A stretch of 32,000 nt of DNA from Thermodesulfobacteriota bacterium (GTDB lineage Bacteria; Desulfobacterota; WTBG01; JAGOGO01): contig CP113000.1 of the NCBI GenBank assembly GCA_026625185.1, positions 2,892,651 to 2,924,650 of the forward strand, written 5' to 3'. Made by a program: the position numbers and the translations under genes. Shown piece by piece: positions 1 to 26,195 of the stretch. Each line of letters starts with the position of its first letter. The stretch's first letter is position 1. The notes below the pieces were generated by a model. The model had not been told where the DNA came from. It saw only the letters and a program-made list of their open reading frames with translations, and made no database searches.

Positions 1-527
1 ACAACCTCAGATTCAGCAAAAACTGTACAGGTGCTGCTTATTTCACAGGGCCTCCCGGCTTTCGCCGCAACCTCCGCCAAGTGTTTAACTTTCATCCCTA
101 ACGCACGCGCAATTGTTTCTAAAAATCTTCCTGTCCCGGCAGCACACTTATCGTTCATAGCGAAATCAATGAGATTCCCTTCTTCATCTAATCTGATCGC
201 CTTGCTGTCCTGACCTCCGATATCGATTACTGTCCTCGCCGAGGGTATCATCGCATGGGCACCTTTGCCATGACACAAAATTTCAGTTTTGATGCTGTTT
301 GCAAAATCAGCCGATACCCTCCCATAGCCTGTGGCAATAATATACTTGACCTCTGCCTTTTTTTTTATCTTTCTCAAGGCCGCTTCCATAGATTGCCTTC
401 CCAAGGCAACAACATCACCCTCGCTAGGTACGATATGATAAGATAAAATTTCATTATTTTCAGCACAGTCCAGTATCACAGCTTTGGTTGTAACTGAACC
501 AATATCAACACCCGCAACAAATGGCAC
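1..527 (-). CDS. BcrAD/BadFG/HgdC-type ATPase (activase or electron-transfer ATPase of 2-hydroxyacyl-CoA dehydratase / class I benzoyl-CoA reductase-like enzymes). The 3' end runs off the window.
   Basis: Absent from the ORF track because it has no stop inside the window. I translated the minus strand from GTG at 527-525, which has an AGGAGAAGG Shine-Dalgarno at 540-532. The result is VPFVAGVDIGSVTTKAVILD...YIIATGYGR...VIDIGGQDSKAIRLDEEGNLIDFAMNDKCAAGTGRFLETIARALG...ISSTCTVFAESEVV, open to position 1. The DIGS.TTK and DIGGQD ASKHA phosphate motifs and the CAAGTG cluster-bridging Cys motif are family hallmarks. Confidence 0.85.
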   Translation of the reverse strand, partial: MPFVAGVDIGSVTTKAVILDCAENNEILSYHIVPSEGDVVALGRQSMEAALRKIKKKAEVKYIIATGYGRVSADFANSIKTEILCHGKGAHAMIPSARTVIDIGGQDSKAIRLDEEGNLIDFAMNDKCAAGTGRFLETIARALGMKVKHLAEVAAKAGRPCEISSTCTVFAESEV

Positions 528-3214: not shown

Positions 3215-3326
3215 TAGTTTTCTCCTGTCTTATCTCAACCTAACATTGTTTTTGTATTGTTCCATGATTGTGGTCAACCCGATGACCAATTTCTAGCTTC
3301 CTTTCGATTTTCTTTTTTTACTGCTT

Positions 3327-3626
3327 TCAAACGATATATTCCAGATAAAACTCACATTTACCGTCTCCACAGCAAAGGGACTTATCAATATGACCCCTTA
3401 TCTTGCCAGTCATACCAGCTGCTTTAATCATGCCCTCGAGCCAGGCATTGCTCATGTCTTTCCATAACACGCAGACATGATCGCTTTCCCCAACGCCAAA
3501 ATACTCAAATGCATACGCTGGCCACGTACAACTTTCGCTCTCGAAGGTCCATCTGTTTGGTGTTTTATCTGTGCACTTGGTTAAGATAAATACATCATTA
3601 TAGACACCAAGCACCATCTCTGCCAA
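3327..3626 (-). CDS. Small Cys-rich protein resembling the C-terminal part of the L-2-amino-thiazoline-4-carboxylate hydrolase-like family (PF14196-like). The start is uncertain.
   Basis: The C-terminal pattern HVCVLWKD...WLEG...KSLCCGDGKCEFYLEY resembles the C..D...G...tla.GD..C.F signature I associate with that family. The track start is a TTG at 3626, but the frame stays open upstream to 3797 (57 more codons) with no ATG, GTG or TTG. Confidence 0.5.
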   Translation of the reverse strand: MAEMVLGVYNDVFILTKCTDKTPNRWTFESESCTWPAYAFEYFGVGESDHVCVLWKDMSNAWLEGMIKAAGMTGKIRGHIDKSLCCGDGKCEFYLEYIV

Positions 3627-4391
3627 TTGCTCGAAATTTTCTTTGAACCAAATCTGGGCATTGAAAATACAGGAAAATCTTCTTGGTACAGTATCTTTCT
3701 GGATAATTGTTACTTCGTATTGGGGTTGAATTTGGCTGGCATCAAGAAAACATTTTAATGAAGTGTGGCTATGTTGGTAAATAACAACGGATCGCCTTTA
3801 ACCGATCCCAAATAAGTCAACTAAGTGGCGTCTATTACTAACACCTTTTTTTACTTGATTTGTCTGAAACAGTACACTAGAACAAAAACGCCAATAAAAA
3901 ATAACCGTCTCATTTTTCTTGTCCGAGCTTCTTTCAACCCAAATTAATATATATATATAAGGTCTTCCAAAAATTGATTAACTCAGAGCTTTCAGATTAC
4001 ATGAAAAGTGCCTCTATAATCGATTCTAAGTTCCCTATCGTTGAACAGCAATATTCCTTTCTGACTCCCCCTCAGTCCAGCAATAAGATAGATCCCAACA
4101 TTATGTTTTCAGAATATCTACGGAGTCTCTTCATAGATATTCCAATATTTTTTCCATTGGTGGGGTCCTTTGACTGCTGAGACAAAATGCTTACAAAAAT
4201 TTTCTGGGGGCGCTCCATCTATTATCGATCCTAATTGTCCACATCTGATTCATTTATCTTGTGGAGGTGCTTTGGGATAAAGGTACGTGTTCTTCCGAAC
4301 TCACAGTACTTTTGTAATCTCTGTCCAATTTTTTAATTCTTCGCCAAAAGATACTTCTATTGACAGCGTTTGTCAATGTAAATAATAAAGG

Positions 4392-4652
4392 TTAGTTTAC
4401 CCTTTGCCCTTTGTCGTGCTCTTTTTTATGGTGGCTCAAAGATCTAAAATAGAGGAAGGGTAATACGATAATATATCCCAAAACTGAGAAACTTATAAAC
4501 AACCTTAATAGACGAAGGACTTCTTGTGGTGTGAAGTAAAATTTTGCTTCCCACATACCTGCTTTCCCCCTAACCACAAACTTATCGGCTTCTCGATGAA
4601 ATTCCAACGGCTCAAAATCAATATGACCTAATGGTGAAATCATTTTTCCCAT
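4392..4652 (-). CDS. Hypothetical small membrane-anchored protein, 86 aa
   Basis: A GGGAGG Shine-Dalgarno lies about 9 nt upstream of the ATG at 4652. The soluble N-terminal half is followed by one hydrophobic helix (LFISFSVLGYIIVLPFLYF) and a basic tail. I recognised no family. Confidence 0.5.
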   Translation of the reverse strand: MGKMISPLGHIDFEPLEFHREADKFVVRGKAGMWEAKFYFTPQEVLRLLRLFISFSVLGYIIVLPFLYFRSLSHHKKEHDKGQRVN

Positions 4653-4772
4653 CTCTATATACCTCCCTTGGAATAGATTCAGGCAACAGAAAACTGAAGA
4701 AAAGTTTATCTTTTTACATAGTTGATGATCAGGTTACTCTCCCATTCGATCTTACCCGCTCAACATTTTGGT

Positions 4773-4967
4773 TCAAATGAGGAAAAGATTGCTGTGGAAA
4801 GTCGGTTCTGTATATACCTTGGTTAGAGACGGATCGCTTGGACGCAGTAATATACCTTCATGCGTTTCCGAGACCAAAAGAGTTGTCCCGGAATCTAAAC
4901 CCCAGCGGCGTCGAAGTGTCACCGGCAACTCTACTTTGCCATCTTTCTCAACAATTAATTTTTGCAT
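4773..4967 (-). CDS. AbrB/SpoVT (MazE-like swapped-hairpin) domain protein, 64 aa. Antitoxin-like or small DNA-binding regulator.
   Basis: MQKLIVEKDGKVELPVTLRRRWGLDSGTTLLVSETHEGILLRP matches the SpoVT-AbrB looped-hinge pattern (G.v.lP..lR...gl..G..l.v......i.L.P). A GGGAGG RBS lies 4 nt before the ATG at 4967. Confidence 0.7.
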   Translation of the reverse strand: MQKLIVEKDGKVELPVTLRRRWGLDSGTTLLVSETHEGILLRPSDPSLTKVYTEPTFHSNLFLI

Positions 4968-5032
4968 GGCGCCTCCCGAAATCCACGAATTTGATCAAAA
5001 GCCAATCAGGCATGCTGTTGTTTCACAGGAAC

Positions 5033-5314
5033 TTAACTTAAATGAATAGGGTTATCCCTCTGTTTCTCAAATGCAGATTTGACGCGATTTCTGCGCTTTG
5101 AAAATACGATGACAAAATTTATGACTATTCTGCGTCTCTGAGAACACACAAGGGGGGCAGAAATTTCCAGCACTGTTAAGGACTGGGGGGTGTCCAAAAA
5201 AGGACGCATCTTAACAATTTCCGACATTACGGAAAAAATCTCGCCCAAATATTCCTGAACGTGTGAAACGTAATTCGAGTCCAGTCGCTTTTGAAAAAAA
5301 TTTAATGAGAACAC
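5033..5314 (-). CDS. Hypothetical ORF, 93 aa. Possibly a gene remnant.
   Basis: This is an ORF-track call only. It has a GTG start without a convincing RBS, no recognisable motifs, and two G6/C6 homopolymers inside it (5152-5157, 5185-5190). Confidence 0.25.
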   Translation of the reverse strand: MFSLNFFQKRLDSNYVSHVQEYLGEIFSVMSEIVKMRPFLDTPQSLTVLEISAPLVCSQRRRIVINFVIVFSKRRNRVKSAFEKQRDNPIHLS

Positions 5315-5347
5315 CTTGGCTACGTTTTCAAGTTTTTTTTTTGTAGA

Positions 5348-6301
5348 TTATGTGATGACTTCCAATAATTCTGAGAATTTCAACAAACATACACTAACTG
5401 GCTCATCCTTTCCCTTAACGGTAATAGAACTTAAACGGTGGTCCCAAAAATGGCGGGGAAGATAGCTAAAAGAATAGGAACTGATTACCAGGTCAGTTTT
5501 TAACTCTTTGGAAGCCTTCTCTAAACGGAAAGCAAGATTTACTGAATCGCCTAAAACAGTATAGTCCTGTAGACGGCCAGAACCTGTATCTCCCACCACT
5601 GCTTCTCCGGTATTAATCCCCACGCCAATTTGTAATGGCTTTTGCAACTGAGGATACGATTGATTTATTGACTCGGTTGCAATATGAAGTTCATAGGCAG
5701 CCTTTAAGGTATTTCTAACATCGTTTTCGGGATTTTTTTTATCAATTAGCCAGCATGCCATAACCGCATCGCCAATAAACTTATCTACTCCGCCTCCATT
5801 TTTTTCAATAACATCGTTAACCGATCGAAACCATTCCCCTAATAATTTAGCCAAAAGATCTATAGGCAATTGCTCGGACATTGAAGTGTAATCACGAATG
5901 TCCGCGACCAGTACTGTTACTTCCTGGACTAACGGTATATCATATGTAATCATGGTTTCTGAGTCAGCTGCCTCATTTCCAATAAAGTCTGGTTGAATTT
6001 TTTGATCATAAGGTTCTGTCTGAAAAATTAAAAAATTCGAACCAACTTGAATAACATCACCCGATTTAAGGAGGATCGGAACAATTACTCTCTTTCCATT
6101 GAGGTAGGTTCCATTGGTGCTTCCCATATCGATAAGATAGTATTTATCTTCACCAAGACAACGCAACAATGAATGATTTCTGGAAACTTTGGGATCAGGA
6201 AGAACCAAATCATTATTTTTGCTCCTTCCGATGGTGGTTAGAGGCCCTAGGGATAGTTTTTGTTTTTCGTATGGAAACTCAAAATTCAAAAATGCTTGCA
6301 T
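5348..6301 (-). CDS. FHA domain - class III adenylate/guanylate cyclase fusion protein, 317 aa
   Basis: The N-terminal FHA reads TIGRSKNNDLVLPDPKVSRNHSLL...LIDMGSTNGTYLNGKRV...GDVIQVG. The C-terminal CYCc catalytic core reads VTVLVADIRDYTSM, KFIGDAVMACW, GINTGEAVVGDTGS and YTVLGDSVNLAFRLE. Confidence 0.9.
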   Translation of the reverse strand: MQAFLNFEFPYEKQKLSLGPLTTIGRSKNNDLVLPDPKVSRNHSLLRCLGEDKYYLIDMGSTNGTYLNGKRVIVPILLKSGDVIQVGSNFLIFQTEPYDQKIQPDFIGNEAADSETMITYDIPLVQEVTVLVADIRDYTSMSEQLPIDLLAKLLGEWFRSVNDVIEKNGGGVDKFIGDAVMACWLIDKKNPENDVRNTLKAAYELHIATESINQSYPQLQKPLQIGVGINTGEAVVGDTGSGRLQDYTVLGDSVNLAFRLEKASKELKTDLVISSYSFSYLPRHFWDHRLSSITVKGKDEPVSVCLLKFSELLEVIT

Positions 6302-6462: not shown

Positions 6463-7320
6463 CTAAGTTTTCATCATTTTTAAATGTAGAACTAATTGAT
6501 TACAAAGAAAAACAAATTCTTTTAACGTTAAAGTCTCCGGCCTTTTAATAGGATCAATCGTACCTTCCGTGAAAAGCCTTTCGATTAATTCAGACGGAAA
6601 AGTCCCGATTGCTTTCATCGCGTTTTTTAAGGTTTTTCTTCTTTGAGAAAACAACGTTTTAACGAAAACTGAAAAAAATTTTTCATTTTCCACTGGTTCA
6701 CGGGGAAATGGCAGAAGATTAAATTTTATTACTTTTGATTCTACCTTTGGTCGCGGATAAAACGCTTCTTTTCCCACTGAAAGCACTACTACTGAATCTG
6801 CATAAAGATTCGCCATTAAAGTTAAAAAACCGTAATTTTTATTTCCAGGTTGTGCGGTTATCCTTTCGGCTACTTCTTTCTGATACATGAATACCATTCG
6901 TGAAATATGATCTCCTTTTTTTAAAAGCTCTATGGTTAAAAGAGACGCAATATAAAAAGGCAAATTCCCAACCACGATTAAAGCTTGGCCTGCCTCGTTT
7001 GCAACTCTTTGGTAATCGAAACGAAGGGCGTCCTGATGGATTATTTTGACATTACTCTCTCGTATAATCTTTGTTCGTAAGAGGGTTGCTAATTTTCCGT
7101 CTTTTTCAATCGCGAATACCCTCTTTACTTGTTCCGCCAAACGGCATGTTAAACCACCCAGGCCCGCACCGATTTCAACAACGATATCCTCCTTCGTAAA
7201 ACCACAACACTCAACAATGCGATTGAGGATTTCCTCCTGAACAATAAAATTCTGCCCCATATTTTTACGAGGCAGGATTGTAAAGTCTTTAATGAGTTTT
7301 CTTTGAGAAATAATTTCCAT
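6463..7320 (-). CDS. rsmA: 16S rRNA (adenine1518/1519-N6)-dimethyltransferase
   Basis: GQNFIVQ, EIGAGLGGLT (SAM-binding motif) and GNLPFYIAS are KsgA/RsmA hallmarks. The length of 285 aa is typical. Confidence 0.9.
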   Translation of the reverse strand: MEIISQRKLIKDFTILPRKNMGQNFIVQEEILNRIVECCGFTKEDIVVEIGAGLGGLTCRLAEQVKRVFAIEKDGKLATLLRTKIIRESNVKIIHQDALRFDYQRVANEAGQALIVVGNLPFYIASLLTIELLKKGDHISRMVFMYQKEVAERITAQPGNKNYGFLTLMANLYADSVVVLSVGKEAFYPRPKVESKVIKFNLLPFPREPVENEKFFSVFVKTLFSQRRKTLKNAMKAIGTFPSELIERLFTEGTIDPIKRPETLTLKEFVFLCNQLVLHLKMMKT

Positions 7321-7615: not shown

Positions 7616-8692
7616 TCACAAAGGAGCATCCTCCAAGCGATAACCGCCATCTGCCTGAAGATGATAACCATATTTAACTCCCCCTGGATACGTAAGGTCG
7701 TCTTTTTTAATTAAACCGGCATATACTAAATCTTCCAAGCTGACTGGGTAGTTACCGGTTTTTAAAAAATAAACATTTAATGCGTTTTTAATCTTTTGGA
7801 ATTGGGTTTTGGCAAAGACCTTTTTATAAGAGGCAATATCATCGCTTAAAGAAGGAGACAAAAGTAATCGTAGCCATAGCATAAGCAAAACGATCAATAT
7901 GGGAAAAATCCCATAAAAAACATATTGCCAGCAATTTTTCTTTATTGGTGGTTTTAAATAAGGCTCCTTTTTGGTCGCAATTTTTTTAATAAAATGCCCC
8001 TCTAATAGGCTGTGCAATGCTTTTAAAGTATTGTATCTCCCCAATACACTCTGGTAAATAATATCTTGAGTAGTTTTTATCCCATCAACTAAACGATAAA
8101 TAATTTTTTCATTAAAAGTTAGCTCATCAATACCGGCCAAAGTTTTTTCATCCAGGGGATTTTTTTGAAAGACAATGCCGAAATGTGGTATTTTTTGGTA
8201 AAGTTCTGGTTCTTCATCTATCATTCGTAGAATATCAAGAAGGATATGCTCAGTAGCGATTATAGTGCTCAATCTCTTGTCATGCTCAATTTCTTTAAGA
8301 TTAAATTCATAATCTCCGGATTTCCATTGAAGAACATCATAGAGTGTCTCTACTAATAAATAATTGTTTATTTTTTGTATTTGGTTTATATTTAATAAAT
8401 TTATATCCAAGAAAACTTCTTCCAAGTTTTTTAAATTTTCATTATGTATTTCCAAGGCCCTTTGTAACTCTTCTTCAGTAACTAACCGAGCCTTGACCCC
8501 GGTATCTCCAAATGGATCCCTTTTCGGTGATAAATAAAAAGGGGATACCTTGGAAATCATGCCATTTGCAAAAATAACATCGGCCTTTTTCCCGCTGCTC
8601 TGAATCGTTAACACACCAGACCGTTGTTGTTGACTGATCAGCTGAAAAATCTCCACTAGGCCGAAGTCGTCAATTTTACCCTTTAAGGCCAC
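7616..8692 (-). CDS. PATAN/DUF4388 domain protein with one TM helix and a C-terminal GspG-like (pseudopilin-like) domain, 358 aa
   Basis: The N-terminus LKGKIDDFGLVEIFQLISQQQRSGVLTI...ADVIFANGMI is the DUF4388 signature. The TM helix is WQYVFYGIFPILIVLLMLWLRLLL (about residues 255-278). The tail AKTQFQKIKNALNVYFLKTGNYPVSLEDLVYAGLI...YGYHLQADGGYRL resembles the T2SS GspG C-terminal pattern (..Al..Y....G.YP.sL..Lv...yl......Y.Y......Y.L). The GTG start has an AAGGAAA RBS and overlaps the upstream gene by 10 nt. Confidence 0.75.
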   Translation of the reverse strand: MALKGKIDDFGLVEIFQLISQQQRSGVLTIQSSGKKADVIFANGMISKVSPFYLSPKRDPFGDTGVKARLVTEEELQRALEIHNENLKNLEEVFLDINLLNINQIQKINNYLLVETLYDVLQWKSGDYEFNLKEIEHDKRLSTIIATEHILLDILRMIDEEPELYQKIPHFGIVFQKNPLDEKTLAGIDELTFNEKIIYRLVDGIKTTQDIIYQSVLGRYNTLKALHSLLEGHFIKKIATKKEPYLKPPIKKNCWQYVFYGIFPILIVLLMLWLRLLLSPSLSDDIASYKKVFAKTQFQKIKNALNVYFLKTGNYPVSLEDLVYAGLIKKDDLTYPGGVKYGYHLQADGGYRLEDAPL

Positions 8693-10818
8693 GGGTTTTC
8701 CTTTTTAATGTTATTGCTCGTTTCCTGCTCTTCAGTTTGATCTTTTTGTTTTTGACTTCTCATCCGAAAGTCTTCCATGGTTTGCATAAAGTTTTTATTG
8801 GAAAGTTCTTTTTTTTGATAACTTTTATTTTTCACAAAGAAATAAAATAAAAGAAATAGTAAAGCAAAAAAAATAATCTTTAATAAAGAGCCTGAATAAT
8901 TCAACAAGAAAGGATCTTTCATGAACCCATTCCAAAATAATATTTTTACAATAAAACAAAAAAAAATAAAAACATATAATATTCCTATCCCAGTGAAGCC
9001 TAACCACAACTGGCCGCTCCCCGGCAACCCAAACGTTAAAAGTTTCCAAACTAACGTTTGACGCCTTTGATGTTTTTCCACTTCCTCAATCATTCTGCCA
9101 TTTACGTTTGCATCACGTTTAAGTTCTTGAATATAAATATTGACACAATGAGAGCAGAATTCGGAAACCATGCCTCCCTTACTCAAAAGCCTTCTTCTTT
9201 TCATGGGCCTTCCACATTGATGACACCGAGTTGATAAATTTTTTCCAACTTCCTGATGAAAAAGAAGAACAAAGATAAATAACGAAAGCAAAATAAAGAA
9301 AAAAATTCCATAGGCATAAGGTATTCCTTTGAAAAAAAGGGGCCACAAAGAATAAACCACTATCTTCTTTTCTTCCGAATTTTGGAATGCTCGATTCCAA
9401 AATTCTTTAAAACTGATGGTCTCGTCAATTATTATACGATTATAAGTAGTAGGACTATAAATTTTTTTTAAATGATAATCAATCAGCTGGGGGTCAAGCC
9501 TTCGGGCAATGAAGAGTTCTTCTCTTTTTTGCGCTTCTAAAAATTTATAAAGCTCAAGATATGTCCGATAAAGATTATAATGAAAAGAAGCTTTGTTATT
9601 AATTATACTAAGGGCCGTTTTATAGGCAGCTTCGGCCTGTTCCAATTTTCCTTGGGCAAAGTAAACATTCGACAGATTATTAATGCCTACTCCCGATGAC
9701 GGATTACTTTCCAAAAATGTCATGTAATATCTTTTAGCTTCTTCCAAGCTTCCCCATTTTTTTTTAATTAATCCTAACGTAAAAATAACATCCAAATCAA
9801 GCGGTTGTGTCTTTAGATAAGCCTCCAGTTCTTTTTCGGTTTCTTGTGACCAATCTTCATAATTAGCTTTGTAAAGCGAATCCAATAACCCTTCTTGATT
9901 TATGAGCACCATTGAAGCAGCAGTTTCAAAAGCCAAAGGTGATAAAACCAAAAGCAAGGCTATACTAAAAATAGCTTGTTTTTCTTTTTTGCTCGCATAC
10001 AACGCCAGAATAACCAGCCAGTAGCAAGCAATTAAAATAGGGCCGATGCCCAAGATAACTGGAAGAGTAACAACAATACCCGCCCATACATATCCCGGTA
10101 TAGCATAGGTCTTTTGGGAAAAAAAATCACCGCTATCTTTTGCTAATAAATTATAATGTTTGATAAGGAGAACAAAAGAAAACACAATGATAGTAAGGAA
10201 AAAAGCAAAGAAAAAAATAAAATAGGAATTGCCTGCTATTAGGGCAAAGGTTTTAAAATTTTTAAAAGCAATCAGATCACCTTTTAAGTATTCTCCAATA
10301 ACTCGAAAAAAGTTAAGTTTGTTTTCTTCTCCGTAGGCCTGAGCTAAAGCCCACGATGGTTGGGGAAAATCAGGGGCGATTTTTTTTGCTGCTTTAGCAA
10401 GGCGAACAGCCTCAGAAGCTTCCCCGCTTCGAATCAATTTCTGAGACTCATTAACCAAAAAACACGCAACGGTTGTAAAATTTTTTATCCCATTATTCAA
10501 TTGGTACTCATGAATTGAATTCAAAGTAATGTCATCCAATTTTATGTTACCGGGAACGATTGTTTTTATGAAATTAGATAAAAAAGGATATTGAGTAAAA
10601 GGAAGGGAAAAGTCTTCTTCGAGGTTCTGCGGGGCTATTGTTTCTGAAGGTTTAGTCGTTTGCTCTTGTTTTGAAGAAACATCTTCCAATGGCTGAAAAG
10701 GTAAAACGTTTTGTTGGGAATACGCAAAAAAAGGCAAGGAGGAAAATAAGGAGAGTAAAAAAAATAGAAAGAAGTAAAAAGTCCTCTTCAAAACGACTAA
10801 TCTTTTATGCATAGTCAA
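8683..10818 (-). CDS. Polytopic membrane protein with TPR-like repeats and an internal CxxC...CxxC zinc ribbon, about 710 aa
   Basis: It has an N-terminal signal-like segment (FYFFLFFLLSLFSSLPFFAYSQ) and several hydrophobic helix clusters. TPR-like stretches include EAKRYYMTFLESNPSSGVGINNLSNVYFAQGKLEQAEAAYKTALSI. The zinc-ribbon motif is CHQCGRPMKRRRLLSKGGMVSEFCSHCV, and the C-terminal tail is charged. The start could be TTG 10818 or ATG 10812. Confidence 0.7.
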   Translation of the reverse strand: MTMHKRLVVLKRTFYFFLFFLLSLFSSLPFFAYSQQNVLPFQPLEDVSSKQEQTTKPSETIAPQNLEEDFSLPFTQYPFLSNFIKTIVPGNIKLDDITLNSIHEYQLNNGIKNFTTVACFLVNESQKLIRSGEASEAVRLAKAAKKIAPDFPQPSWALAQAYGEENKLNFFRVIGEYLKGDLIAFKNFKTFALIAGNSYFIFFFAFFLTIIVFSFVLLIKHYNLLAKDSGDFFSQKTYAIPGYVWAGIVVTLPVILGIGPILIACYWLVILALYASKKEKQAIFSIALLLVLSPLAFETAASMVLINQEGLLDSLYKANYEDWSQETEKELEAYLKTQPLDLDVIFTLGLIKKKWGSLEEAKRYYMTFLESNPSSGVGINNLSNVYFAQGKLEQAEAAYKTALSIINNKASFHYNLYRTYLELYKFLEAQKREELFIARRLDPQLIDYHLKKIYSPTTYNRIIIDETISFKEFWNRAFQNSEEKKIVVYSLWPLFFKGIPYAYGIFFFILLSLFIFVLLFHQEVGKNLSTRCHQCGRPMKRRRLLSKGGMVSEFCSHCVNIYIQELKRDANVNGRMIEEVEKHQRRQTLVWKLLTFGLPGSGQLWLGFTGIGILYVFIFFCFIVKILFWNGFMKDPFLLNYSGSLLKIIFFALLFLLFYFFVKNKSYQKKELSNKNFMQTMEDFRMRSQKQKDQTEEQETSNNIKKENPWP

Positions 10819-10822
10819 ATTA

Positions 10823-10838
10823 CTCCCGTTGTCGGGAG
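10823..10838 (-). promoter_or_regulatory. GC-rich intercistronic stem-loop that includes the Shine-Dalgarno of the downstream membrane-protein gene
   Basis: On the minus strand the sequence reads CTCCCG-acaa-CGGGAG, a perfect 6-bp stem with a 4-nt loop. The 3' arm GGGAG is the only SD-like sequence ahead of the TTG 10818 / ATG 10812 start. Confidence 0.4.
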
Positions 10839-10848
10839 ATGTAGTTCA

Positions 10849-12273
10849 TCAAATAAGCTCTTCTAAATGTATGGTAATAGTAAGTTTTGCCTTTTTTTGA
10901 ACATCGCTTAATTGAAGGGTTAAAGGTAATTTTATTGAAGCGGGTAAAATTTTTTCCGGGGCACCACAGCTAATAATTTCAATTCCACCCGTTGTTGATG
11001 GCGCTTTGGGAACGCTATTTGTTAAATCTTCCCTTTGGACTGATTGCGCTTCATCTATAAACTCTTTATCACCTTGAGATGTTACCGCAGCTTCATCAGT
11101 TTCAAGCTCAATCCATTCCGGAGAGTCTTCGAGATCTAAAGGTATCTCTTCAATGTCCGTTTTATTTTCTTCAACTTCAAATTCAGTAGTTCCTTGCGTT
11201 TCTAATAATATACCTTGGTCTTCTTCCTTGGAGCCCATTAAATCAATCTCGTCCGCAAATTTTTCTTTGGCTTCTTCACGTTTGAAATATGGTTCGTCTG
11301 AAATCGGTATGTCATCCGTTATGCCATTGAACTCAAATCCTTCTTCCGATACATCAAGTTCATTTCCAAAATCTTCCTCGGTAAACTCTTGATCAATTGC
11401 CTCGGTTTCCCCAGTGGCAAGGACATTTTCACTGTCAAAATTTTCTGGCCCCTTTGTTGTCTTTAAATCCACGGGCTCTGATTGAGCTGTTGCTTGCTCC
11501 TTTTGTTTTAATAATCTATCGATGGTCGCACGCCTTTCAGCTCGAAGTCTTTCAATGTCAAAGACCTTTTCCTCCGATTCCAATTCAATGAAAGATTCCA
11601 CATCACTTTTTGGTAAAGGGGGTGGAGTTTTAGTGGTATCCGGAGTTAAAGGTGCTGAACGGGTTGGTGGCTTTACTTTTGGTTTTTTAGAAGAATCCTC
11701 TAGGCTTTCTAAAACTGCTTTACTTATATCGGTAAGGGTTTCCATCACCCCTTTTCCGTTTAAACCTACTGATTCAATGACAGGAAGGTTGCGTCGGTTT
11801 AACTTTGAGTTTAAAGTTTGAATACTGGAAATTTTTTTTAAATCTCTTTTATTGTATTGAAGAATCATCGGGATATCATCAATTTTTTTCCCATAATAAA
11901 GAAGATTTTTTTCCAAGTCTTCCAAACTTTCAATGTTCTCCGCCAATTTTTCTTCTTGTGAATCGGCCACGAAGACAATTCCATCGACCCCGGTTAAAAC
12001 TGCTCTCCGAGTTGAAACATAGTAAACTTGACCAGGAACTGTATATAGGTGAATTCGAACATTAAATCCTTTTATCATCCCAAGGTCCAAAGGAAGAAAA
12101 TCAAAAAAAAGTGTTCTGTCGTCTTTTGTGGCCAGAGAAATAAGATTACCTCTCTGTTTCGGATTTAACCGGTTATGGATAAAATGAAGGTTAGTAGTTT
12201 TACCACCAGCAGCGGGACCATAATAAACTATCTTGGCTCCAATTTCCCTTTTCGAGGGGTTAAACACAACCAT
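10849..12273 (-). CDS. MglA-like Ras-superfamily GTPase with a ~280-aa Pro-rich/acidic C-terminal extension, 474 aa
   Basis: The G domain occupies about residues 1-192. Motifs are KIVYYGPAAGGKTTNL (P-loop), DRTLFFDFLP (switch I), LYTVPGQVYY (the MglA-specific PGQ in place of DxxGQ) and QYNKRDL (G4). Overall it runs closely parallel to Myxococcus MglA as I recall that sequence. The tail (nt 10852-11697) is PPTRSAPLTPDTTKTPPPLP followed by long D/E-rich low complexity, ending in a short beta-looking module (IKLPLTLQLSDVQKKAKLTITIHLEELI). Confidence 0.85.
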   Translation of the reverse strand: MVVFNPSKREIGAKIVYYGPAAGGKTTNLHFIHNRLNPKQRGNLISLATKDDRTLFFDFLPLDLGMIKGFNVRIHLYTVPGQVYYVSTRRAVLTGVDGIVFVADSQEEKLAENIESLEDLEKNLLYYGKKIDDIPMILQYNKRDLKKISSIQTLNSKLNRRNLPVIESVGLNGKGVMETLTDISKAVLESLEDSSKKPKVKPPTRSAPLTPDTTKTPPPLPKSDVESFIELESEEKVFDIERLRAERRATIDRLLKQKEQATAQSEPVDLKTTKGPENFDSENVLATGETEAIDQEFTEEDFGNELDVSEEGFEFNGITDDIPISDEPYFKREEAKEKFADEIDLMGSKEEDQGILLETQGTTEFEVEENKTDIEEIPLDLEDSPEWIELETDEAAVTSQGDKEFIDEAQSVQREDLTNSVPKAPSTTGGIEIISCGAPEKILPASIKLPLTLQLSDVQKKAKLTITIHLEELI

Positions 12274-12279
12274 TAGTTT

Positions 12280-13362
12280 TTATCCTTTCGATAATTCCTC
12301 TAAAATTTTTTTTGTGTTCTTGTAACTTGGATTAACTTTTTGGATATCTTTAAATACCTCGAGAGCTTTTTTTGACTCCTCCATCTTCGCATAGGTTAAA
12401 CCTAGCTCATAATTCAATTCTAAAAACTCTCTTTGAGAAATAAAATTGCTTTTTAAACCACTTTTAGCCGCATTAATAGCATGTTTATACATCTCTTTTT
12501 CTCGAAAACAGGTAACTAAACGCCGGAAACAATCATTTTTAATGTCCTGATCATCTAACGCTTTTTTAAATTCCTCGATTGCATCGTCAATCCTATCCAT
12601 TTGTTGATATGCTATTCCAAGTTCATAATGAAGTCTAAAGGCTTCTTCCTTGGGTTTTTCTGCAATACCTTTTATGATGCCTTCAAAGACTTTATTCACC
12701 TCCATTGAGGACTCATCTTTGGCTATTTCAGTTTTATCTGTTGATATGATTAATTCCTCACCATCGTTTAACCGAGATCCCAGATCAAAATAGCCTTTTT
12801 CACTCAACCCTTCTGGCGAAGGGACCATCTTTATATGCTCGGGTTGTTTTTCCCCAACTTCGATTAATTCTTCTTCACCATCTTGTTTATTATGAGAAAC
12901 CTTCTTTAATGACACAAAAAATTTATTCGCTTTTTCTCTAATAAATCGATTCGAGGGGTCAAGGTTGATCATCCTTTCAATTATATTTCTGACTTCAAAA
13001 GGTTTTCCTGAAATCAGAAGATACTGCGCCAATTTCTCATAGGTAGCAGCCGCATCACCTATAAAACCAAGCTTTTGATAAAGCTCAGCAAGCGTTAAAT
13101 AGACATTTACCAAAGTTGGGTCAAGAGAAAGCACTGTCTTGTAAATTGACATTGTCAATTGGTAAAGTTCTTCCTTGGCATAGGTTTCAGCAGAATAAAG
13201 ATATTCTTTTACGGCTTCCTCTTTTTTCCCTTTCTTTAAATACAAGTCAGCTATTTTCATATGAACCCCAATATTATCAGGTTCATTTTTAGCTAGTTGC
13301 AGATATTCATCAAGGGTTTTTTCACCGGATTTTTTTTTCATTAAAAAAGATAAAAACTTCAC
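12280..13362 (-). CDS. TPR repeat protein, 360 aa. First gene of the GTPase operon.
   Basis: Repeated TPR-like helical pairs are present (ADLYLKKGKKEEAVKEYLYSAETY, LAELYQKLGFIGDAAATYEKLAQY, LGIAYQQMDRIDDAIEEFKKAL, LGLTYAKMEESKKALEVFKDIQKVNP). The GTG start at 13362 has a GGAGAA RBS 9 nt upstream. The stop lies 6 nt before the GTPase start. Confidence 0.8.
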   Translation of the reverse strand: MKFLSFLMKKKSGEKTLDEYLQLAKNEPDNIGVHMKIADLYLKKGKKEEAVKEYLYSAETYAKEELYQLTMSIYKTVLSLDPTLVNVYLTLAELYQKLGFIGDAAATYEKLAQYLLISGKPFEVRNIIERMINLDPSNRFIREKANKFFVSLKKVSHNKQDGEEELIEVGEKQPEHIKMVPSPEGLSEKGYFDLGSRLNDGEELIISTDKTEIAKDESSMEVNKVFEGIIKGIAEKPKEEAFRLHYELGIAYQQMDRIDDAIEEFKKALDDQDIKNDCFRRLVTCFREKEMYKHAINAAKSGLKSNFISQREFLELNYELGLTYAKMEESKKALEVFKDIQKVNPSYKNTKKILEELSKG

Positions 13363-13662
13363 TCTTAATTTTTCTCCGATCTCAGAAAAATCTCTTATAT
13401 TTTTTAGCCAGTTTGTAATATATTTAATTTTTAAGTATACGTTTTTAAAAATAATACTATAAAATTTAAACTATTTCAAAAAAACATAAAATATCAGATA
13501 ATTTATCTGGTTATCTTTAAAACTTTTTTATACCACAAGATATATTTAAAATAAACTTTTTTTGTTCTTAGGATTATGATTTTAGATAAATCGCATAATT
13601 TTTAAATTTCAAATCACTTCCTAATCATTTATATTGACATAATATTTATTCTCAATTATTTA

Positions 13663-13698
13663 AAATATTAGGAAAAATTAAAATATTAGGAAAAATTA
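13663..13698. repeat. Perfect 18-bp tandem duplication (AAATATTAGGAAAAATTA x2) in the divergent promoter region
   Basis: Read directly: 13663-13680 is identical to 13681-13698, followed by a partial third unit (AAA). It lies in the 541-bp AT-rich gap between the GTPase operon and the PP2C gene. Confidence 0.9.
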
Positions 13699-13903
13699 AA
13701 ACCAAATTAATTTTTTAAAAATCATTTACATCTTTCCCCCCAGGGCTAACTTAAAAAAAATAAAAAAATACCAATGTAATTTTTACATGATTTCTCAGGT
13801 AATTACAGCCTTCAAAGAGTTCCAAACAAACATTCACGCTCTTTCAAATTCAACGGAAATTTTTTCCGTTTTTTTTTACTACCTATTGTAATAATTAAAA
13901 AAT

Positions 13904-14737
13904 ATGAAAGTTTCATTCTCCGCAAAATCTGACTTGGGTCTCAAAAGGAAAATTAATGAGGACAGCTTCTTAGCCGATAAAGATATGGGTCTTTTTTTGA
14001 TATTAGATGGTATTGGCGGCCACTTGGCAGGTGAAGTGGCAAGTAAATTAGGTCTTAACACCATAAAAGAAAATGTTATGCGATCTTTAACCAATAAATG
14101 GTTAACAGAGAGCCAAAATTTATCCCGAGAAGTAGAGATTCTCAATGAAAGCCTTGTGTTGGCTAATAATGTTATCTATGAAGCAGCTAACTCAAAACCT
14201 GAATACTTCGGGATGGGCACAACGGTAGCTTCACTTCTTTTAGGGTGTGAAAATATCGCCATTGCTCATGTTGGAGATAGCCGAATCTACCTTATCCGAG
14301 AAAATTCTATTGAAAGACTTACTGAAGACCATTCCTTAGTCGTGGAGCAGCTTAAAAGAGGTATTATTAGCGAAGAAGAAGCAAAAAAGTCAGGAATGAA
14401 AAACGTAATTACACGAGCCTTGGGAGCAGAAGAATTATTGACTCCCACGGTAAATGAACTTATCCCTTTTAATAACGACTTATTCCTTATTTGCTCTGAT
14501 GGACTCACCGACCTCGTTACCGATGATGAAATTCTTGAAATTATTTTAAAAAGTCGTCACCTTTTAGATAATGCTGTCCAAAATCTCATTGATAAGGCAA
14601 ATGAAAAAGGAGGAAAGGATAATATTACCGTTATCTTAATTAGTATTAAATGTCGTTGCAAAAAAAAATTGACCCAATATTTGTTTTCGGCTCTTGACAG
14701 GGTTTTTTCATGGTTGCATCTGAAAATGATTGACTAA
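13904..14737 (+). CDS. PP2C-family Ser/Thr protein phosphatase (Stp/PrpC-like), 277 aa
   Basis: SDLGLKRKINEDSF, FLILDGIGGHLAGEVAS, GMGTTVASLL, AHVGDSRIYLIR, LTEDHS, ICSDGLTD and GGKDNITVILI are the PPM metal-binding and core motifs. Confidence 0.9.
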   Translation: MKVSFSAKSDLGLKRKINEDSFLADKDMGLFLILDGIGGHLAGEVASKLGLNTIKENVMRSLTNKWLTESQNLSREVEILNESLVLANNVIYEAANSKPEYFGMGTTVASLLLGCENIAIAHVGDSRIYLIRENSIERLTEDHSLVVEQLKRGIISEEEAKKSGMKNVITRALGAEELLTPTVNELIPFNNDLFLICSDGLTDLVTDDEILEIILKSRHLLDNAVQNLIDKANEKGGKDNITVILISIKCRCKKKLTQYLFSALDRVFSWLHLKMID

Positions 14738-14802: not shown

Positions 14803-15531
14803 ATGCCCAAGCTTATTTTAAAGTTCAAGGAAGCATTATTAAAAGAATATGCATTAGAAGAGGAGATGGTGACTATTGGAAGAGTTGATGATAACACCAT
14901 CAAGGTTGATAATATGGCCGTCTCAAGTCATCATGCTAAATTAATTCGAGAAAATGGTGATTATGTTCTGATTGATCTTAACAGTTTAAATGGAACTTTT
15001 GTAAATGGGCAAAAAGTATCAAAATGGATCCTCAAAAATAACGACTTTATAACGATTGGTAAACACACCCTGGTATATATTGATGAAAGAGCACCGAAGA
15101 AATCTCCTTTATCAGGGACCTCTGAATTGAGATCACCTGAAGAAACGGTCATGCTCGATATGCGCACTCAGCAGCAGTTGCTTGAGGAAGCTGCTGCTAA
15201 AAAAGGGGTTGACAAGATGGGAGAATTCGTTGGGGCGCTAACCTTTATATCGGATAACGAAGGTGAAGGTGAAATAGATTTATCAAAACGAATCACCATG
15301 ATTGGAAAGGGTAAAGAGGCGGAAATCAAAATAAAGGGCTTTTTTCTTCCCAATATCTCTGCTGTTATCAGTAGAAGACCGGCCGGATACTTTCTCTCTC
15401 ATTCTGGGGGCAGAGCCATACCAAAGGCAAATGGTGAATCAGTAAAGGGGCAGGTCAAGCTTAAAGATGGTGATATAATCGAAATTGCTGGGCTTAAAAT
15501 GCAATTCTTCTTAAAACCAACCCAAGAATAA
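14803..15531 (+). CDS. Protein with one canonical FHA domain and one degenerate FHA-like domain, 242 aa
   Basis: The N-terminal FHA is VTIGRVDDNTIKVDNMAVSSHHAKL...LIDLNSLNGTFVNGQKV...DFITIGKHTLVY. The C-terminal segment is ITMIGKGKEAEIKIKG...VISRRPAGYFLSH...ANGESVKGQVKLKDGDIIEIAGLKMQF. It keeps the FHA beta-sandwich pattern but lacks the canonical GR / S.H / NGT residues. A GGAGGA RBS lies 9 nt upstream. Confidence 0.85.
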   Translation: MPKLILKFKEALLKEYALEEEMVTIGRVDDNTIKVDNMAVSSHHAKLIRENGDYVLIDLNSLNGTFVNGQKVSKWILKNNDFITIGKHTLVYIDERAPKKSPLSGTSELRSPEETVMLDMRTQQQLLEEAAAKKGVDKMGEFVGALTFISDNEGEGEIDLSKRITMIGKGKEAEIKIKGFFLPNISAVISRRPAGYFLSHSGGRAIPKANGESVKGQVKLKDGDIIEIAGLKMQFFLKPTQE

Positions 15532-15954: not shown

Positions 15955-17283
15955 TTGAACAAAAAAGAAAAGAGAACAGAAATATCAAAGTCGACCACGA
16001 CCCACCTCATGGAAATCATCTCGGAAGAGGAATTTTTAAAGCTGGTACAAAATGCTGCCGCTGACGTTCTTCGGCTAAGCCTTTTTTTAGAAGATTTAAA
16101 AAGTAACGAGAAGGTTTTTAATAAAAAATTATTTTACGCGATTCTTACGGTGTCTAGGGACCTGGAAGATTTTTTGGATGCTCATGGCGCAAAAAACAAT
16201 CGAGAGTGGTCTTATTTTAGGGAACTAGTTGCTTCAGCACGCAATTTGGGATTTGTTGCATTTCTGATTGAGCATATCGAAAAAAGTTACATTCCCGCTG
16301 AAGAACAAAAAATTTTTGATGAATATTTTGATAAAACGAGGAATACTAAACATTACTTTAATCAAACCCTACAAAAAATTTTTGAACTTATAAGAGTAGA
16401 AGCCCAACGGCTTAAAATATCTTTTCCTCCAAGAGGACTCACAGAAATTTATTATTATGATATCCCATCGAATAAATTTCTCCCGCAAAATTTGGATGAA
16501 GGAGAAGTAAAAAATAAAAGAGAAAATATTATTAAGATCTGTTCCAAGTATCTCAACATAAGTAGTCAATTTCACGATCTCAGATTCAACAAACAGTATC
16601 CTTCAGAGATACTCGCCCAAATGATTCCCGAAAAAATTAATGAAGAGAGAATCAGACGATTTGAATTGGTTATGCATAATTTAGAGTCGGTTTATGACAC
16701 CTATGTAAAAGATAAGGCGTTGGAAAATGAAGACTCCCGCTTTGGCCGCTTACGGACATATATCTCATCCATCCTCCATCTCTTTGAGATCGCGCGTGTA
16801 TTAGCGCATTTTTATGAGCGCCATGAAAAAATAAACAGTATCCTTGAAAAATCTATTACCCATATTAATATTTTAAACTGTACTATCAACTGGGCGCTTT
16901 ACTACATTAATGTGATGATGCTATCTGGTCGCATGTTGGCTGATGCATTATTAAAGGAATATACGGCGATGGATTCAATTGAATTGCCGGTCCCTAAGGA
17001 CTTAGGTTTTCATCTTCGGCCATCTACCTTAGTTGCAAAGGTGGTTAACCATTATGGTTCTGATGTTTATATGGTAGTGGGACAAGACAAATTTGATGCC
17101 AAAAGTGTTCTTAGTTTAACGTGGGCAGGAGGAAAAATCGCACGAGAAAAAATAGAGAAGGTTACTTTTGTAGGAGATAAAAGAGTATTAAAGGATTTGA
17201 AGATCTTGGCTAATATAAACTATGGTGAGGACATCATGGGAAAAGATCGCCCTTTGCCTAAAATACTTTCCTATCTTCGTTAG
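15955..17283 (+). CDS. Unknown all-helical N-terminal domain (~340 aa) fused to a C-terminal HPr (PTS phosphocarrier) domain, 442 aa
   Basis: The C-terminal ~100 aa (nt 16978-17283) read IELPVPKDLGFHLRPSTLVAKVVNHYGSDVYMVVGQDKFDAKSVLSLTWAGG...VTFVGD. This aligns with HPr (..NGLHTRPAA.FV..A..F.S.I.V...GK...AKSL..L..LG). The His15 equivalent is the cat codon at 17011-17013, and a Ser46 equivalent lies in AKSVLSL. The TTG start at 15955 is 5 nt after a GGAGG at 15945-15949. Confidence 0.75.
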   Translation: MNKKEKRTEISKSTTTHLMEIISEEEFLKLVQNAAADVLRLSLFLEDLKSNEKVFNKKLFYAILTVSRDLEDFLDAHGAKNNREWSYFRELVASARNLGFVAFLIEHIEKSYIPAEEQKIFDEYFDKTRNTKHYFNQTLQKIFELIRVEAQRLKISFPPRGLTEIYYYDIPSNKFLPQNLDEGEVKNKRENIIKICSKYLNISSQFHDLRFNKQYPSEILAQMIPEKINEERIRRFELVMHNLESVYDTYVKDKALENEDSRFGRLRTYISSILHLFEIARVLAHFYERHEKINSILEKSITHINILNCTINWALYYINVMMLSGRMLADALLKEYTAMDSIELPVPKDLGFHLRPSTLVAKVVNHYGSDVYMVVGQDKFDAKSVLSLTWAGGKIAREKIEKVTFVGDKRVLKDLKILANINYGEDIMGKDRPLPKILSYLR

Positions 17284-23601: not shown

Positions 23602-24615
23602 TTATATTAACCCTACTCCATCTATTTTCGCCTGGCAATCCGGACACCTTCCTTCCTTAACCTTGTATCGCGAAATAGTAAATCCACTTCTTTCAATCAG
23701 AAGGTTGCCGCAGGAATAACAATAGGTGTTCGCACCGATTTCACCAGGAACATTTCCTTCATAGACATAACGAAGCCCAGCTTTAAGTCCGATCTCACGT
23801 GCCTTTCTCAAAATTTGAATTGAAGTCCGGGGTGGATCATTAAGCTTATAGGTTGGATAATAAGCAGAAATATGCCAAGGAATGTTTGCATCGAGATGGA
23901 AAATAAAATCAGCAATATTTTCAAGTTCCTCATACGAGTCATTATAGGTAGGGATTATAAGCGTGGTGATTTCTAACCAAATCCCCAATTGCTTGTATAA
24001 CCGCAGTGATTCTAAAACGGGCTCAAGCCGTGCCCCGCATATCTTTTTATAAAAAGTATCAGAAAAACTTTTGAGATCTACATTGGCACCATCCAAATAG
24101 GGCTGAATGTTCCGGAGGGCTTCGGGGGTTATATAGCCATTAGTAACAAATATATTTTTAAGTCCTTGCTGATGTGCCAAGACCGCGATGTCAGAAGCGT
24201 ATTCATAAAAGACAGTCGGTTCAGTATAGGTAAAAGAAATAGAGCTACACTGATATTTTTTTGCGGTTTTTACAATCTCATAGGGGGAGACATCATTGCC
24301 GACGATTTTTCCATGATCCCGGACCAGCTGAGAAATACTGTAGTTCTGACAATGTTTACAGCTGAAATTACACCCGGCCGTAGCGATCGAAAAGGAGCTG
24401 CTCCCCGGGTGAAAGTGATAAAGGGGTTTCTTTTCGATCGGATCAATCGCCTGTGAAATACATCTCTCATATACTAAGCTATAAAGAATACCTCCATTAT
24501 TCTCCCGCACCCCGCAAATTCCTCTGCGTCCGTCACGAATGAGGCACCGGTGATTACACAGCGCGCACCTGACGTCATTGCCTTCAAGTTTCTGGTAAAA
24601 CAACGCTTCTTTCAT
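23602..24615 (-). CDS. AmmeMemoRadiSam-system-type radical SAM enzyme (PFL-activase-like)
   Basis: The N-terminal VRCALCNHRCLIRDGRRGICGVREN, then KKPLYHFHPGS, then the radical-SAM cluster motif GCNFSCKHCQN, together with a length of 337 aa, fit the AmmeMemoRadiSam family pattern. ATGA start/stop overlap with the upstream permease. Its stop abuts the PBP start codon with a 0-nt gap. Confidence 0.8.
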   Translation of the reverse strand: MKEALFYQKLEGNDVRCALCNHRCLIRDGRRGICGVRENNGGILYSLVYERCISQAIDPIEKKPLYHFHPGSSSFSIATAGCNFSCKHCQNYSISQLVRDHGKIVGNDVSPYEIVKTAKKYQCSSISFTYTEPTVFYEYASDIAVLAHQQGLKNIFVTNGYITPEALRNIQPYLDGANVDLKSFSDTFYKKICGARLEPVLESLRLYKQLGIWLEITTLIIPTYNDSYEELENIADFIFHLDANIPWHISAYYPTYKLNDPPRTSIQILRKAREIGLKAGLRYVYEGNVPGEIGANTYCYSCGNLLIERSGFTISRYKVKEGRCPDCQAKIDGVGLI

Positions 24616-26167: not shown

Positions 26168-26195
26168 TTATTAGTGTGGTTTTAGATCGCCCTTT

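Follow-up and report, generated by a model that had tools for sequence, protein, structure and literature searches.

How might an MglA-type switch be wired to the cell envelope, and can it operate without MglB? Both questions are raised by a four-gene operon on the minus strand of a 32,000-nucleotide (nt) stretch of DNA from a Thermodesulfobacteriota bacterium (NCBI GenBank assembly GCA_026625185.1, contig CP113000.1, positions 2,892,651 to 2,924,650), which we call the window. In order, the operon encodes a tetratricopeptide repeat (TPR) protein, an MglA GTPase with a long C-terminal tail, a polytopic membrane protein with TPRs and a zinc (Zn) ribbon, and a protein in which a PATAN domain is joined by a transmembrane (TM) helix to a pilin-like C-terminus (genes 1 to 4). 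The answer that we propose, and to which we give about an even chance, is that these genes specify an MglB-independent switch of the MglA/SgmX type, which is tethered to an inner-membrane complex and has an output of the type IV pilus (T4P) kind. That the four genes make up one co-directional and tightly packed unit, as the initial annotation of the window had it, is confirmed by the coordinates of the open reading frames (ORFs) and by their spacing, that is, a 6-nt gap between genes 1 and 2, a 30-nt gap between genes 2 and 3 and a 10-nt overlap between genes 3 and 4. The 30-nt gap holds for the ORF as listed and is probably 36 nt, because the homologues of gene 3 and the Joint Genome Institute (JGI) gene call start at an ATG two codons downstream (10812; MHKR..., 709 aa).

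The GTPase is where the argument begins. Residues 3-192 of gene 2 match the solved MglA of Myxococcus xanthus and Thermus thermophilus with E-values of 1e-59 to 3e-61 (phmmer against PDB; 6h17, 5ymx, 3t12), and its G motifs comprise the P-loop GPAAGGKT (GxxxxGKT), DRTLFFD with the intrinsic Arg53, TVPGQ with Thr78 and Gln82, and NKRD. The hallmarks of group-1 MglA are GxxxxGK[ST], NKxD, an intrinsic Arg by the G2 Thr and a G3 that reads TVPGQ (Wuichet & Sogaard-Andersen, 2015; PMC4316618). Judged by its sequence, gene 2 is a true member of MglA group 1, and the genuine MglA core with a tail that had been proposed for it is borne out by the match to MglA structures (E 3e-61) and by the presence of all G motifs. 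As to the claim that these motifs are MglA-like throughout, it stands for the switch regions, TVPGQ included, and has to be qualified for the P-loop, in which Ala replaces the Gly21 of Myxococcus. The same trend is seen across homologues of gene 2, which have TVPGQ in 119 of 120 cases and, where a P-loop is detectable (n = 118), Ala at position 21 in 94, Ser in one and Gly in 23.

It is its tail that sets this protein apart. With 474 aa, gene 2 departs from the ~195-aa single-domain MglA by the addition of 282 residues, made up of a 236-aa linker and a 46-aa module at the very end. The linker is acidic and contains prolines, varies in length and sequence and is poorly conserved among 14 aligned MglAs from the clusters; the Asp plus Glu content of the tail is 0.10-0.32 across homologues, and the linker is probably disordered. 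In some tailed MglAs (L019, L021, L025, L026 and L028) the linker houses a zinc ribbon of the CPRC...CPIC type (CPRCSLKFKPNVKQCPIC), for example in L021:5325-6824, and the partner membrane protein likewise has a cytoplasmic zinc ribbon. The terminal module, of about 46 aa, reads GIEIISCGAPEK...IKLPLTLQL...KLTITIHLEELI in gene 2, is predicted to form three beta-strands, and has the family consensus (L/I)xI(I/V)SCGxPxK...(I/V)K(I/L)PLxL...KxxLxIxI. The best 120 database matches to full-length gene 2 are 299-500 aa long, and an inspection of their C-termini, as listed, showed the module. When the module on its own was used as a profile against 1.84 billion representative sequences, 84 proteins were found, with the match at the extreme C-terminus in nearly all; among the matches of at least 300 aa, TVPGQ is present in 19 of 24, the remainder being mostly fragments or weak matches. 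Across the 93 genomic loci inspected here, each of the 23 four-gene ones has an MglA with the module, which no other ORF contains. Since the profile and homologue searches place the module nearly always at the C-terminus and, among the longer proteins, mostly in MglAs, tailed MglAs form a distinct and sizeable subfamily, of which we found no description in the searchable literature.

If gene 2 is the switch, gene 1 looks like its effector. Its residues 7-139 align to positions 13-145 of the SgmX model NF052243 with an E-value of 2.5e-30 (NCBIfam), a block that corresponds roughly to TPRs 1-3 of SgmX, the next-best TPR model reaching only 3e-13 for this N-terminus, and SgmX is also the top match for the C-terminal half (~176-352), which aligns to positions 827-1008 (E 6e-14). 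The same mapping, N-terminus to N-terminus and C-terminus to C-terminus, is repeated in distant homologues from L004, L021 and L090-L092, with the C-terminus of the L092 protein aligning to model positions 834-1014. Generic TPR families match gene 1 as well. Hydropathy gives no TM segment, and we take the protein to be cytoplasmic. In Myxococcus, SgmX binds MglA-GTP through its three C-terminal TPRs and FrzS through its middle, and its eight N-terminal TPRs activate type IVa pili (PMC11580455; PMC7668184; PMC7519303). In Bdellovibrio, MglA has Ser21 and no MglB (PMC3983030) and is bound by Bd2492, a 353-aa protein described as a remote homologue of SgmX. Gene 1 is, on these alignments, a ‘mini-SgmX’: it keeps the block for output at the N-terminus and the one for MglA binding at the C-terminus, and is devoid of the middle. 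Two SgmX-like TPR paralogues lie upstream in the L090 cluster.

The two remaining genes encode the membrane part. Gene 4 matches DUF4388/PATAN (PF14332) with 83.3 bits against a cut-off of 25 (E 1.8e-23), and its AlphaFold2 (AF2) model has a predicted local distance difference test score (pLDDT) of 85.3. Within the PATAN core sits an alpha-clip, or MshEN-like, insert, through which the family profile finds the N-terminal MshEN/GSPII-type domains of PilF, MshE and PilB in PDB (E 7e-24 to 1e-7). Because a basic stretch precedes the TM helix, the N-terminal 250 residues are placed in the cytoplasm and the last 75 outside, so that hydropathy, charge and the AF2 model agree with the topology suggested at the outset, with a cytoplasmic PATAN domain and a small pilin-like domain on either side of one TM helix. 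The C-terminal region has a GspG/ComGC-like motif (...KIKNALNVYFLKTGNYPVSLEDLV...) that is conserved across the family, and two short strands at residues 342-354 in the model. The idea of a pseudopilin-like fold is marginally backed: besides this motif there is a match to TIGR01710 (E 7e-4, NCBIfam), the T2SSG score being below threshold and the support from fold comparison weak (see below). There is no prepilin-peptidase site (G-1/E+5) and no GFTLxE motif in gene 4, and neither processing nor polymerisation is possible with a hydrophobic helix that lies within the chain, preceded by 250 cytoplasmic residues. The C-terminus is no pilin but a membrane-anchored, pilin-like remnant with a cytoplasmic domain in front of it.

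Of two functional readings of the cytoplasmic half, one was rejected and the other is no more than hinted at. The MshEN motif for cyclic di-GMP (c-di-GMP) is a tandem RLGxx(L/V/I)(L/V/I)xxG(L/V/I)(L/V/I)xxxxLxxxLxxQ. In the alpha-clip of gene 4, motif 1 reads PFGDTGVKARLV...H and motif 2 KNLEEVF..., with the Arg, Gly and Gln positions replaced; on these residues, and on its score with the c-di-GMP model NF053729 (given below), c-di-GMP binding was discarded. The PATAN domain might, as a weak hint has it, be a GTPase-platform fold: a fold search with the PATAN model gave nothing below an E-value of 0.1, and Foldseek matches of residues 1-180 to GATOR1/KICSTOR, which contain Roadblock/longin domains, had probabilities of at most 0.72 and were too poor to interpret or rely on.

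Gene 3 is the least familiar of the four. Its topology, derived from hydropathy and from a positive-inside charge analysis, is self-consistent, and predicts seven TM helices beyond the N-terminal signal or anchor, two periplasmic domains and a basic cytoplasmic loop. TPR families are its only Pfam matches (residues 364-430), the four Cys of the ribbon in the loop are invariant in the family alignment, and the CxxC...CxxC pattern is kept in 13 of 13 four-gene and 58 of 60 two-gene loci (71 of 73). The polytopic TPR/Zn-ribbon partner first described thus holds on three counts, the Pfam TPR matches, the topology and the invariant Cys. An AF2 model (pLDDT 69.5; predicted template modelling score, pTM, 0.69) found generic TPR matches and no known membrane fold in a fold search against PDB, in which the TM core was without a solved or named relative. 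At L090:10232-12248, a locus of the Gly21 type, the homologue of gene 3 is spread over three called ORFs (383, 127 and 153 aa), which correspond one after another to segments of the 711-aa protein; this may be a genuine split or the result of frameshifts.

Do these genes belong together? When GTDB species genomes were searched with a profile of gene 4, 534 relatives came up, and the best 80 loci were inspected; four diverse homologues of the tailed MglA (L090-L093) were chosen independently, and 93 loci in total made up the set for motif searches. The best 80 come from Thermodesulfobacteriota (including Syntrophaceae), from Myxococcota (Archangium minus, Archangium gephyra and Anaeromyxobacter) and from a few Acidobacteriota bins, and nearly every one with enough upstream DNA has a homologue of gene 3 directly upstream of gene 4. 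The TPR and tailed MglA genes precede this membrane pair in 13 of the 80 GTDB loci, in L004, in all four of L090-L093 and on other metagenome contigs, the four-gene loci with a label being L004, L010-13, L015, L019-21, L025-28, L045 and L090-93. Wherever such an MglA is found, that is, in all 23 related loci, the order TPR–MglA–membrane protein–PATAN recurs, and order and tight spacing hold from 91% down to ~28% identity in gene 4 and in differing flanks. Conservation of the neighbourhood, which had been set beforehand as the test of a single module, was thus passed strongly, both by the 13 GTDB loci and by the four independent ones. The operon is conserved in many bacteria of the sulfate-reducer type. 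Since the membrane pair is found far beyond the loci that contain MglA, it is the older and wider unit. The mini-SgmX and tailed MglA are an add-on that is strictly linked to it, and the pair in itself is a widespread, uncharacterised two-gene module of Myxococcota and Thermodesulfobacteriota.

Two side observations concern these loci. In L005:1367-7849 and L008:321-7988 a protein of 2160-2555 aa precedes the membrane pair, in which a few TPRs near residues 460-800 are the sole recognisable domains; a fusion of TPR and MglA parts, or an SgmX-like protein, was considered and rejected, there being no BLAST, NCBIfam SgmX or GTPase match to these giants. In L045 (11686-12225) a gene that resembles those of type IV prepilins (GFTLIELMITVAIIGILAAVA) is found 1.6 kb downstream of the cluster, on the far side of an AAA ATPase gene, and is the sole pilin gene near any of the 93 loci.

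How much of this is already known? The closest parallel is the MglA–SgmX pair of M. xanthus, whose group-1 MglA is 58% identical in the core and has the equivalents of Arg53, Thr78 and Gln82, and whose TPR effector has the same N-terminal and C-terminal MglA-binding blocks. The effector here is of 360 aa as opposed to 1060 aa and is without the FrzS-binding middle, the MglA has a 280-aa tail and Ala21 and shares an operon with its effector and two membrane proteins, and no MglB, RomR/RomX or TamAB genes are nearby. The partners in the M. xanthus sgmX operon, MXAN_5763-65, were considered as homologues of genes 3 and 4 and rejected, being Omp85, TamB and SecA-like proteins according to the literature. 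Bdellovibrio resembles the operon, by description, in its ~350-aa TPR partner, its residue 21 other than Gly and its lack of MglB, and there too the TPR gene comes first in an operon with genes for membrane proteins; these proteins are TamB/TamA (DUF490/Omp85) instead of TPR/Zn-ribbon and PATAN proteins, however, and the mglA of Bdellovibrio is unlinked and untailed. SofG, an orphan MglA paralogue of M. xanthus that acts on the positioning of PilB and PilT, has extensions beyond the G domain and no known cognate GTPase-activating protein (GAP) of the MglB type, but we obtained no evidence that it has the C-terminal module or such a gene context.

The membrane side has partial parallels of its own. 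In PatA-type response regulators of cyanobacteria (PixE and PixG) a PATAN domain with an alpha-clip is joined to a receiver domain (REC), and PATAN alone binds the N-domains of PilB1 and of PilC and is localised to the membrane; in gene 4 its fusion partners are a winged-helix-like domain, a TM helix and, in the periplasm, a pilin-like domain, and a GTPase would take the place of phosphorylation as input. With the GspG/ComGC pseudopilins gene 4 shares a hydrophobic helix that runs into an amphipathic alpha1 with the pattern ‘...ALxxYxLxxGxYPxxLxxL...’, followed by short strands, but it differs in its internal helix, in the absent prepilin-peptidase site and in a globular part that is cut to ~45 aa. 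PATAN genes near mglA were observed by Makarova et al. (2006) and by Wuichet and Sogaard-Andersen, and according to STRING SgmX co-occurs with uncharacterised PATAN proteins in Myxococcus; a literature search for MXAN_3211, MXAN_4965 and SgnC gave nothing beyond the STRING listing. The statement that this is not a described system must accordingly be trimmed: its TPR and MglA half corresponds to the known MglA–SgmX/Bd2492 pair, and PATAN near mglA is known. What is undescribed, as far as we found, is (i) the tailed-MglA subfamily with its C-terminal module, (ii) the PATAN–TM–pilin-like architecture paired with a TPR/Zn-ribbon membrane protein and (iii) the conserved four-gene operon.

How could such a switch work? 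By analogy with Myxococcus, MglA-GTP would bind the C-terminal TPRs of the mini-SgmX, while the C-terminal module, at the end of a flexible acidic linker, would dock MglA at the cytoplasmic face of the membrane pair, for which the basic Zn-ribbon loop, the C-terminal tail of gene 3 and the PATAN domain are candidate sites. Permanent tethering at a fixed membrane site, together with slow hydrolysis, might replace recruitment by RomR/RomX and clearance by MglB, with Ala21 rendering hydrolysis slow or insensitive to a GAP. On the output side, PATAN/alpha-clip and the SgmX-like N-terminal TPRs could act on a PilB-type ATPase or on the PilC platform, contacts with pilins or the alignment complex could be made by the pilin-like and TPR domains in the periplasm, and the result would be local licensing of the assembly of type IV pili or of a related type IV filament. 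We consider an output through PilB or PilC the most likely one because (i) the N-terminal TPRs of SgmX act in this way genetically, (ii) in Synechocystis PilB and PilC are binding partners of a PATAN domain (bioRxiv 10.1101/2021.06.11.447907), (iii) the alpha-clip is of the type found in the N-domains of PilB and MshE and (iv) the periplasmic tail of gene 4 is pilin-like. The ‘envelope-spanning’ module envisaged in the initial annotation finds no support: all predicted parts are cytoplasmic, periplasmic or in the inner membrane, and no outer-membrane component was found among them.

The first matter to be weighed is whether the absence of MglB is a property of the system or of its neighbourhood. 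No ORF of the window, small ones included, matches Roadblock/LC7, and neither do any of the called genes around L004 and L090-93; the scope of this negative result is the 32-kb window and flanks of up to 10 kb in relatives. In the 23 related loci, likewise, no Roadblock/MglB domain was found within ~9 kb. Two small, co-directional ORFs that precede the TPR gene in L019-21 and L025-26 have the size of a Roadblock protein; they were tried as MglB and rejected, since they encode DUF948 and YtxH proteins. It follows that the initial view of an operon with no adjacent MglB is sound as a local statement, and that its wording, no Roadblock-sized ORF, was too strong: ORFs of 100-260 aa do exist in the window, none of which matches Roadblock/LC7. 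Of the two traits seen in coupled MglA–MglB systems, an mglB within four genes and Gly21, on which GAP-stimulated hydrolysis depends, gene 2 has neither. In Bdellovibrio, where MglA has Ser21 and no MglB, Milner et al. argue that substitution of residue 21 makes MglA GAP-insensitive and mostly GTP-bound, and five of nine MglB-less species have Ala or Ser at this position (PMC3983030). The tailed MglA could nonetheless be an accessory paralogue, beside a canonical mglA–mglB (and romR/romX) elsewhere in the genome, so that ‘without MglB’ would be true only locally. We see this as quite possible, somewhat short of probable. Orphan MglA paralogues with extensions and no known cognate GAP exist, SofG being an example, Gly21 is kept in a minority of the tailed MglAs (23 of 118), and what was inspected amounts to 32 kb of the source genome and ~20 kb per relative. 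Set against this are the Ala or Ser21 of 80% of tailed MglAs (95 of 118), as reported for MglB-less species, and the fact that no inspected flank has a Roadblock domain. An accessory paralogue would be compatible with the membrane tether and would alter only the claim of an MglB-less organism.

The second matter is the target. With the same architecture, the membrane pair might be a general landmark for the envelope, polarity or division, into which the tailed MglA and mini-SgmX merely plug in one Desulfobacterota clade, a possibility that we consider rather unlikely and that draws on several of the results that weigh against the MglB-independent switch with a T4P output. Where there is no MglA, the pair adjoins housekeeping genes, guaB/guaA or ispDF in Syntrophaceae and mazG/phoH/pgpH/ybeY in Archangium, and its primary role may therefore be unrelated to MglA; apart from the L045 prepilin gene, a search for Walker A and prepilin motifs found no pil, gsp or secretion-ATPase genes within ~9 kb in the 93 loci; Anabaena PatA (PATAN-REC) interacts with the divisome (PMC7380572); and the operons of Bd2492 and SgmX are tied to TamAB envelope biogenesis, not to pil genes. 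The remaining points against the switch lie in the proteins themselves. Gene 1, with its 360 aa, scores 105.5 bits against the 1800-bit full-length equivalog cut-off of SgmX, a protein with 14 TPRs and a FrzS-binding middle, and being so far below this cut-off it shows homology of both functional ends and not orthology. The alpha-clip reaches 22.7 bits with the c-di-GMP MshEN model NF053729, for which 38 are required. As for the pilin-like tail, T2SSG matches gene 4 with 19.7 bits (E 8.8e-4), below the Pfam gathering threshold of 21, the family profile matches GspG (5wda) with an E-value of 0.5, and Foldseek proposes PilA4 at a weak E-value of 2.4 and a probability of 0.6. Against a landmark role, on the other hand, the experimentally studied relatives of the soluble parts, namely SgmX, Bd2492/MglA_Bd and the PATAN of PixE/PixG, all act on T4P, and both the PilB/MshE-type alpha-clip and the GspG/ComGC-type motif of the tail point to the same machinery.

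A bolder form of the T4P reading, in which the membrane pair is the missing inner-membrane receptor that links MglA–SgmX-type switches to T4P, and in which the GTPase of the four-gene version is regulated free of MglB by permanent tethering through the module, with PATAN or the module as a built-in GAP-like or guanine nucleotide exchange factor (GEF)-like platform, strikes us as doubtful. Far more improbable still is that the four genes are neighbours by chance, or part of a mobile or defence island rather than one module. The defence reading was rejected: PADLOC was near-empty, a single sub-threshold match to the TPR protein (E 1.4e-4, 18.8 bits) being all that speaks for it, and the GC content of the operon matches its surroundings, with no integrase or defence signatures found. 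The conservation of order and spacing over the whole range of PATAN identities, in varied flanks, effectively refutes chance adjacency.

The coordinates of the operon, of its predicted domains and of the genes that border it are collected in Table 1. The spacer 5' of gene 1 is AT-rich, measures 541 nt and holds the best promoter-like site on the minus strand, yet the number of such sites in it is not above shuffled expectation, and consensus scans are not significant alone; the divergent promoter region that separates gene 1 from the PP2C gene has 27% GC. A scan for terminator-like hairpins found a single weak one on the minus strand within the operon, inside gene 3. Between gene 1 and the PP2C gene there is also a perfect 18-nt tandem repeat (TTAAAATATTAGGAAAAA, 2.3 copies; window 13660-13701). 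Genes for Ser/Thr-phospho-signalling border the operon on both sides, flanks that are retained in L004 (49% PATAN identity) and not in L090-93. A GTPase identical to gene 2 is also present on JGI contigs and on contigs of more than 1 Mb, the window being metagenomic, and the nearest species-level genomes are metagenome-assembled genomes labelled Thermodesulfobacteriota or ‘delta proteobacterium’.

Table 1. Positions in the window and residue ranges of the operon, its predicted parts and its neighbours
Feature	Residues	Window position	Strand	Basis or remark
Gene 1, TPR protein	360 aa	13362..12280	minus	
Gene 2, tailed MglA GTPase	474 aa	12273..10849	minus	
Gene 2, MglA G domain	1-192	11698..12273	minus	PDB phmmer, alignment, motif counts
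Gene 2, acidic Pro-containing linker	193-428	10990..11697	minus	alignment of 14 cluster MglAs
Gene 2, conserved C-terminal module	429-474	10852..10989	minus	family alignment and profile search
Gene 3, polytopic TPR/Zn-ribbon membrane protein	711 aa	10818..8683	minus	
Gene 3, signal/anchor	7-34			
Gene 3, periplasmic helical domain	35-189			
Gene 3, four TM helices	190-307			
Gene 3, periplasmic TPR domain	308-493			
Gene 3, TM	494-526			
Gene 3, basic cytoplasmic loop	527-601			
Gene 3, Zn ribbon	C532/C535...C555/C558	9145..9225	minus	in basic cytoplasmic loop
Gene 3, two TM helices	602-666			followed by cytoplasmic tail
Gene 4, PATAN–TM–pilin-like protein	358 aa	8692..7616	minus	
Gene 4, PATAN core	3-51 and 127-177			
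Gene 4, alpha-clip/MshEN-like insert	60-120			
Gene 4, winged-helix-like domain	182-240			
Gene 4, long helix	254-312			
Gene 4, TM	~254-280			sole hydrophobic segment
Gene 4, periplasmic pilin-like remnant	283-358			
Candidate sigma-70-like promoter, TTGAAA-17-TATTAT		13451..13479	minus	best consensus match upstream of gene 1
PP2C phosphatase gene		13904-14737	plus	divergent, upstream of operon
FHA protein gene		14803-15531	plus	upstream of operon
rsmA/ksgA		6463-7320		between operon and FHA–cyclase gene
FHA–adenylate/guanylate cyclase gene		5348-6301	minus	downstream of operon, beyond rsmA/ksgA

Elsewhere in the window, the ~2.1 kb at 3215-5347 have short ORFs only (64-156 aa) with no Pfam or Rfam match, in a region where JGI calls four small genes, and a plus-strand gene at 15955-17283 encodes a 442-aa protein whose sole match is an HPr-like phosphocarrier domain at its C-terminal residues 344-389, the 340 aa at the N-terminus being unassigned. 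On the minus strand, three consecutive ORFs without a Pfam match (302, 244 and 269 aa; 24612-27005) have a radical-SAM gene on one side and a DRTGG/AAA_26 gene on the other, and the 244-aa one resembles a multi-pass membrane protein. An Rfam scan of the whole window gave no match.

What, then, could this operon contribute to our understanding of MglA and T4P? In the licensing of pilus extension by MglA and SgmX, no direct SgmX–PilB or SgmX–PilM interaction was detected (PMC11580455). The operon, in which one unit combines a minimal form of SgmX with an MglA and with a PATAN/pilin-like protein that crosses the membrane, nominates candidates for what connects MglA/SgmX to the pilus. The tailed-MglA subfamily, with its module and its mostly Ala21, would have escaped earlier censuses of single-domain small GTPases, and would provide, besides Bdellovibrio, a second and independent case of an MglA system apparently without MglB. 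The operon may show how a polarity switch is wired to the cell envelope, and, if the receptor reading is true, the occurrence of the membrane pair in Myxococcota, Archangium and Anaeromyxobacter among them, brings the question within reach of the model myxobacteria.

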